IMG/VR virus record: IMGVR_UViG_2534681979_000013
Origin: a virus
Lineage: Duplodnaviria > Heunggongvirae > Uroviricota > Caudoviricetes
Strand: one strand, 5' to 3'
Length of the DNA: 9,540 nt
A model generated the notes under the pieces. That model saw only the letters and a list, made by a program, of their open reading frames with translations. It did no database searches and was not told where the DNA came from. Made by a program: the position numbers and the translations under genes. Position 1 is the first letter of the stretch. Every line of letters begins with the position of its first letter. This document shows, piece after piece, positions 172 to 704 of the stretch.

Positions 172-704
172 ATGAGCAGGAAACTCCGCTATGGTTTATC
201 AGCGGCCGTTCTGGCGCTGATTGCCGCAGGCGCTTCTGCGCCTGAAATCCTCGACCAGTTTCTGGACGAAAAAGAAGGCAACCACACCACGGCATACCGT
301 GATGGTGCGGGTATCTGGACCATCTGCCGCGGTGCCATCCTGGTGGATGCAAACCTGTCGTTCCGGGCATGAAGTTGTCGAAGGAAAAATGCGACCGGGT
401 TAACGCCATTGAGCGTGATAAGGCGCTGGCATGGGTGGAGAAAAACATCAGAGTGCCACTGACCGAACCGCAGAAAGCGGGCATCGCGTCATTCTGTCCG
501 TACAACATCGGGCCTTCGAAATGCTTCACCTCAACGTTTTACCGGAAACTGAACGCAGGAGACCGGAAAGGTGCATGTGCTGAAATCCGCCGATGGATAT
601 ATGACGGCGGCAGGGACTGTCGGAACCGCTCAAATAACTGTTACGGGCAGGTATCGCGGCGTGACCAGGAGAGCGCGCTGGCGTGCTGGAGTATCGACAG
701 ATAA
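172..704 (+). pseudogene. R: SAR endolysin (T4-lysozyme-like phage lysozyme R), reading frame broken by an apparent 1-nt deletion near 345-350; may be a sequencing error
   Basis: ORF 172..372 encodes a Gly/Ala-rich signal-anchor-release segment (LSAAVLALIAAGASA) and the lysozyme catalytic triad spacing E-x8-D-x5-T (EKEGNHTTAYRDGAGIWT). ORF 369..704 in another frame continues the lysozyme fold (...PLTEPQKAGIASFCPYNIGP...). The second frame is open from 303, so the two frames overlap over 303..372. Restoring one G in GTGGATG^CAAACC gives a contiguous ~177-aa protein. SD GGGAGAG lies upstream of ATG 172. Confidence 0.8.

Follow-up and report, generated by a model that had tools for sequence, protein, structure and literature searches.

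Lysis genes at the left end of the contig

The 9,540-nt stretch of DNA analysed here (the window) is identical in sequence to the whole of contig AFOB02000339.1 in the draft genome of Escherichia coli O104:H4 LB226692 (GCA_000215685.3). It begins with a lysis region in which the holin, endolysin (R) and Rz genes have the same order as in finished genomes. The features of this region are the following:

3..167, plus strand: class II holin S (pinholin type), PF04971 (Phage_holin_2_1); the 5' end is cut by the contig end, and the finished homologues are annotated as 'class II holin family protein'
172..372, plus strand: N-terminal R fragment, 66 aa; residues 1-59 are genuine (SAR-like signal-anchor, E35/D44/T50) and the last seven, ANLSFRA, are out of frame
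348..349, plus strand: site of the missing G; the reference has GATGGCAAA and the window GATGCAAA, so that a GG 2-mer is read as G; GG is present in both O104:H4 copies and in all other homologues
369..704, plus strand: C-terminal R fragment, 111 aa as an ORF, in a frame that is open from 303; PF00959 positions 34-125
924..1037, plus strand: small ORF of 37 aa (MKGIEVETPASLDLTRAAAFAIRIVAIAVLVWAIRWW) between R and Rz; finished genomes have a 114-nt hypothetical CDS at the matching place
1039..1497, plus strand: spanin Rz, 'lysis protein', PF03245

SAR endolysins are exported by an N-terminal signal-anchor, are kept inactive in the membrane and are freed when the holin depolarises that membrane. 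Two further elements were seen between R and Rz. The 37-aa ORF, the C-terminal half of which is hydrophobic, ends 2 nt before the Rz start, and at 794-835, downstream of R, a GC-rich inverted repeat is followed by a T run (AAAAACCCCGTTTGTTGGCAGCAAGCGGGGTTTTGTGTTT), which looks like a putative intrinsic terminator inside the lysis cassette.

Endolysin R is specified in two frames

The window contains two ORFs at the place of the endolysin gene, 172..372 (66 aa) and 369..704 (111 aa), which lie in different frames and overlap by the 4 bases ATGA at 369-372. The second frame is open from 303, being preceded by a TGA at 300-302. In a profile search the 66-aa piece matched positions 2-25 of the 125-position Phage_lysozyme profile (PF00959) with 18.7 bits, which is under the gathering cut-off of 22.3, and the 111-aa piece matched positions 34-125 with 55.7 bits. 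Since the two pieces are consecutive parts of one PF00959 domain in two frames, the arrangement is not due to chance.

When the G is restored, a 177-aa protein is obtained that covers PF00959 positions 2-125 with 88.6 bits against the cut-off of 22.3, and that resembles the phage 21 endolysin chains 3HDE (E = 7e-19) and 3HDF (E = 2e-18). The catalytic triad E35-x8-D44-x5-T50 lies within KEGNHTTAYRDGAGIWT of the 66-aa translation, a stretch which aligns with 3HDE. Residues 8-23 (GLSAAVLALIAAGASA) are a candidate signal-anchor, Gly/Ala-rich and weakly hydrophobic, with a composition as expected for a SAR domain. At the level of sequence, 172..372 and 369..704 were thus confirmed as halves of a single SAR endolysin R of 177 aa. 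The original prediction, in which the signal-anchor and the E-x8-D-x5-T motif were assigned to the N-terminal ORF and the rest of the lysozyme domain to another frame, open from 303, thus agrees with what is read from the sequence and from the split profile match.

The missing G

Alignment, as DNA, of the window with three intact homologues (from E. coli ML35, phage PhiR12_3 and a Stx2a phage) revealed exactly one gap in the window. It had been proposed, with the protein junction of homologues as the expected reading, that a G was lost at GATG^CAAA near 349; the alignment showed both position and base to be exact, and the intact homologues do possess the junction AILVDGKPVVPGMKL, also given as AILVDGKPVVPGMKLSKEKC. 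The site had been described as lying outside a homopolymer. This needs correcting, as it is a homopolymer of two bases, GG.

All R homologues examined consist of one ORF of 177 aa, and a natural two-ORF form, which would have spoken against an error, was found in none of them. Among finished genomes of the outbreak clone, which come from isolates other than LB226692, an uninterrupted 534-nt lysozyme gene with GG is present in HUSEC2011 and, for the copy in the Stx2 prophage, in FDAARGOS_349. HUSEC2011, a finished O104:H4 genome, carries a prophage at about 1.9 Mb whose copy is identical to window positions 349-704. A single uninterrupted R frame is therefore lacking in the window as deposited and present in both finished copies from which the window derives.

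Occurrence of the deleted junction in other records

The junction was looked for with a 48-mer centred on the deletion, a length at which megablast seeding is impossible unless the junction is present. Neither the 5,426 complete E. coli genomes searched, many finished O104:H4 outbreak genomes among them, nor 50,697 phage records gave a match; an exact 30-mer over the deletion was likewise not found in genome or viral contig collections. The corresponding positive controls with the G restored recovered 1,057 E. coli records (49-mer) and 112 viral contigs (31-mer).

A scan of metagenomes gave one match to the deleted junction, on the minus strand at 25-54 of a 1,512-nt human-gut contig with a k-mer coverage of 1.45 (L012; ENA OQER01013812). 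Its allele differs from that of the window, being a Qin/rrrQ-type lysozyme with YdfR upstream, and in comparison with a finished genome it has eight single-base indels, seven of them in homopolymers, and only two substitutions. With eight indels in 1.5 kb at 1.45x, and a different allele, it was rejected as a natural allele; if anything, it suggests that the same GG was also under-called in another indel-riddled dataset.

Look-up of the exact protein products was also carried out. Five recorded contigs carry the 111-aa C-terminal ORF: the window itself, three on which it is cut by contig ends, and an E. coli draft contig (L008; GCA_013998435.1, AAVCAV010000218.1, about 2650-3340) with the same lysozyme type, an apparent internal duplication of ~150 nt and an intact GG. 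A pseudogene common to other assemblies was accordingly rejected, the other carriers being contig-end cuts or a different lesion with GG. For the 66-aa product a single contig was returned, identical to the window, and this uniqueness was given less weight because the chimeric N-terminus described below is enough by itself to make the protein unique.

The contig combines two prophages

The late regions of two prophages of the outbreak clone were compared with the window. In the Stx2 prophage (locus L004, FDAARGOS_349) the order of genes is holin, R, antirepressor, Rz, Rha and terminase, and in the 1.9-Mb prophage (locus L006, HUSEC2011) it is holin, R, small ORF, Rz, LPS phosphatase and terminase. 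The order in the window (R, small ORF, Rz, Rha, terminase) occurs in neither prophage and in no finished genome.

Allele by allele, the window changes from one copy to the other along its length. Between 95 and 341 there are 21 informative sites, 10 with the allele of the Stx2 copy and 11 with that of the 1.9-Mb copy, and these alternate with 12 switches. The last Stx2-type allele before the deletion is at 321, and from 330 all are of the 1.9-Mb type. At the deletion itself the two prophage copies are locally divergent (GATGGTAAGCTTGTCGTCCCC vs GATGGCAAACCTGTCGTTCCG). Positions 349-1244 match the 1.9-Mb copy exactly, save for the G missing at 348 and an A missing at 720. Within Rz, at ~1245-1490, the alleles are mixed and pass from the 1.9-Mb to the Stx2 copy; 1447-2400 matches the Stx2 copy exactly, and the window stays almost purely Stx2-type up to about 5900. 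A second mixed stretch extends from about 5900 to 7900, and 7900-9527 is of the 1.9-Mb type.

Over window positions 1-348 the identity to any complete E. coli genome is at most 97.4%. With this ceiling, a third genuine prophage copy was rejected as the source of the mosaic, as was the reference backbone of strain 55989. The mixed alleles, together with the lack of any genome above 97.4%, indicate that the contig is the consensus of a collapsed repeat and that the cell has no such locus. Judged from its alleles, then, the window is a chimera into which the Stx2 and the 1.9-Mb prophages have been collapsed. Neither the chimera nor the place of the deletion, at the end of a mixed part, had been noticed in the original prediction. 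The O104:H4 genome has another two to three weaker lysozyme paralogues, which are unneeded to explain any base of the window.

Private differences and other broken genes

Differences which the window shares with neither prophage copy are confined to a few positions. Those outside R are:

720..721, plus strand: second private loss, A5 to A4, intergenic, just 3' of R
3252..3270, plus strand: T8G11 junk insertion (TTTTTTTTGGGGGGGGGGG), in neither finished copy; followed by an extra T at 3277
4137..4138, plus strand: private loss, A6 to A5, by which the large terminase gene is split into ORFs 3351..4145 and 4142..5056
8909..8910, plus strand: private loss, A7 to A6, which splits the N4-gp56-family major capsid gene (start 8388)
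9528..9540, plus strand: junk contig end (CTCCGGGGGGGGG), unlike both finished copies; a low-quality read tail

Six private events are thus counted: loss of G at 348, loss of A at 720, 4137 and 8909, the insertion at 3252-3270 and the gained T at 3277. The deletion in R had been reported as the third single-base loss; the actual tally is four losses and one gain, plus the 19-base insertion. The insertion and the extra T lie where the genes for the small and the large terminase overlap, and spoil the end of the former and the start of the latter.

No private substitution was found. From 2389 to 9527 all 679 variable sites (679/679) carry the allele of one or the other prophage, 349-1244 has no private substitution with respect to the 1.9-Mb copy, and the only bases matching neither copy, other than the indels, are the last 13. 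When the six events are undone, R has 177 aa, the small terminase subunit (TerS) 268 aa and the large subunit (TerL) 568 aa, and the frame of the capsid gene is open. These restored lengths are the ones annotated in the finished genomes, where TerL is a 1707-nt gene. Genuine gene decay would leave substitutions as well as indels. A pattern of indels only is a known mark of Ion Torrent PGM data.

Origin of the sequence data

LB226692 is an isolate of the German outbreak of 2011 and was sequenced in ten Ion Torrent PGM 314-chip runs, to 21x, within 62 hours (PMC3140518). The assembly was reference-guided: strain 55989 served for read mapping, MIRA assembled the reads left unmapped, and contig merging was done in CAP3 (PMC3140518); the WGS record is version AFOB02, whose exact assembly recipe may differ from that published. 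Homopolymer indels were corrected by hand by the authors in 51 of 1,144 core genes (PMC3140518). In PGM data indel errors are about ten times commoner than substitutions, and those in homopolymers of at least two bases are mostly deletions (PMC3623719). Of the strand-asymmetric indel errors which occur at high frequency, 82% are in 2-3-mers, mainly as the loss of C or G (Bragg et al. 2013, PMC3623719).

A finished genome under the name LB226692 was not found, and the literature search gave no paper linking HUSEC2011 with LB226692; the relation claimed here is that of membership in the same outbreak clone only.

Interpretation of the split gene

The split of R is almost certainly a sequencing or assembly artefact in a chimeric contig of LB226692 and not a matter of biology. 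We draw this conclusion because of the provenance of the window, the finished genomes with GG, the chimerism, the indel-only private differences, the absence of the junction elsewhere and the published PGM error profiles. The preference for an error over a true pseudogene that had been expressed in the original prediction is strongly supported by the provenance, and also by the finished genomes, the absence of the junction elsewhere and the indel-only private differences.

The sequence of events was almost certainly as follows. The late regions of two lambdoid prophages are nearly identical, and their reads were collapsed into one consensus, which hops between the Stx2 and the 1.9-Mb copies. 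The GG 2-mer at 348/349 was called as a single G, either by a flow-chemistry under-call or by a consensus error at the point where reads of the paralogues begin to diverge, and with this loss the final two thirds of R are read in the wrong frame. The true genome has two intact copies of R, each a SAR endolysin of 177 aa and of the phage 21 type that lies between a class II holin and Rz. The provenance, the chimerism, the indel-only private differences and the absence of the allele elsewhere are observed; we infer that the LB226692 reads themselves would show GG, and by which of the two routes the G was lost.

A variant of the artefact, which we consider possible though rather unlikely, attributes the gap to paralogue collapse and not to a base-calling under-call, the aligner or consensus caller having dropped a column. 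The deletion does lie at the end of the mixed-allele stretch, which has its last Stx2 allele at 321 and gives way to the 1.9-Mb type from 330 on, and at a place where the two copies become locally divergent. GG is present in both paralogues, however, so that mixing alone makes no gap; the losses at 720, 4137 and 8909 are simple under-calls of homopolymers, and one of these falls in sequence derived from a single copy; and the human-gut contig shows the same change of GG to G without any mixing of paralogues. As an aid to the artefact, paralogue collapse at 348/349 probably helped the error to reach the consensus.

It is very improbable that R is a true pseudogene, one prophage of LB226692 having lost its endolysin to a genuine 1-nt deletion peculiar to this isolate. 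The deletion is present in the sequence as deposited, frameshifted lysis genes are common in decaying prophages, and the E. coli draft contig L008 has a different lesion in the same type of lysozyme. Yet the locus as written is missing from the clone, being a consensus of two prophages, and all finished outbreak genomes have GG in both copies, the lesion not occurring in independent assemblies. There are six private indel or junk events and zero private substitutions, and three of the six break essential head and packaging genes; a pseudogene would need a real mutation, at a site which each finished genome of the clone has unbroken, amid five further private lesions that are clearly artefactual. 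The platform, and the remarks of the authors of the draft, predict errors of this kind.

Synthesis of R across two frames through ribosomal slippage, or a natural two-ORF layout, is hardly conceivable and was rejected: nothing beyond the 4-base overlap of the ORFs speaks for it, every homologue examined is a single ORF, no E. coli genome of the 5,426 and no phage record has the two-frame junction, and the required change of frame falls at GAT-GCA, which is not a slippery heptamer.

Implications

With the artefact as the preferred reading, the broken R, both broken terminase genes and the broken major capsid gene of this contig should not be taken to mean that prophages are decaying in the O104:H4 outbreak strain. 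The contig fuses two prophages; it is unfit as a reference for a real prophage and its gene order is untrustworthy. Screens for broken genes or for novel recoding should filter drafts of this kind, and the main value of the case lies in that caution. Were the deletion real, it would amount to a small lesion of one isolate in a lysis cassette that is well known, leaving one Stx-type prophage without an endolysin and reliant on the R of the other prophage for lysis after induction.

Going by what is established about phage 21 lysis and by the matches given above, each prophage in the real genome is equipped with a standard cassette of a class II holin, a SAR endolysin with its triad and an Rz/Rz1 spanin, the 37-aa small ORF being an additional element in the cassette of the 1.9-Mb copy. 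Nothing in evidence hints at anything unusual in this cassette.

Comparison with known systems

Repaired R resembles R21 of phage 21 (3HDE/3HDF) and the E. coli lysozymes RrrD and RrrQ in that it matches the whole PF00959 profile, possesses the triad and has a Gly/Ala-rich N-terminus. Its surroundings in the window are also R21-like, with a class II holin (PF04971) before R and Rz after it. Unlike R21, the gene as deposited is in two frames, and, unlike in the RrrD, RrrQ and R21 systems, its N-terminal part has alleles that mix two prophage copies, in a combination which is in no finished genome.

As an assembly, the window is like the chimeric collapsed-repeat contigs which lambdoid prophages give in short-read drafts of E. 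coli, with alleles that change from one site to the next where the copies are most alike. It joins the R-Rz part of the 1.9-Mb prophage to a part of the Stx2 prophage with Rha, terminase and portal, and after that goes back to head genes of the 1.9-Mb prophage, which is nothing unusual for contigs of this class. In its errors it is like PGM data (PMC3623719), with loss of a G in a 2-mer, under-called A runs and poly-T/poly-G junk, all without private substitutions. In one respect it differs from the usual PGM error: the fault in the 2-mer persisted in a 21x consensus, which is less usual than it is for long runs.
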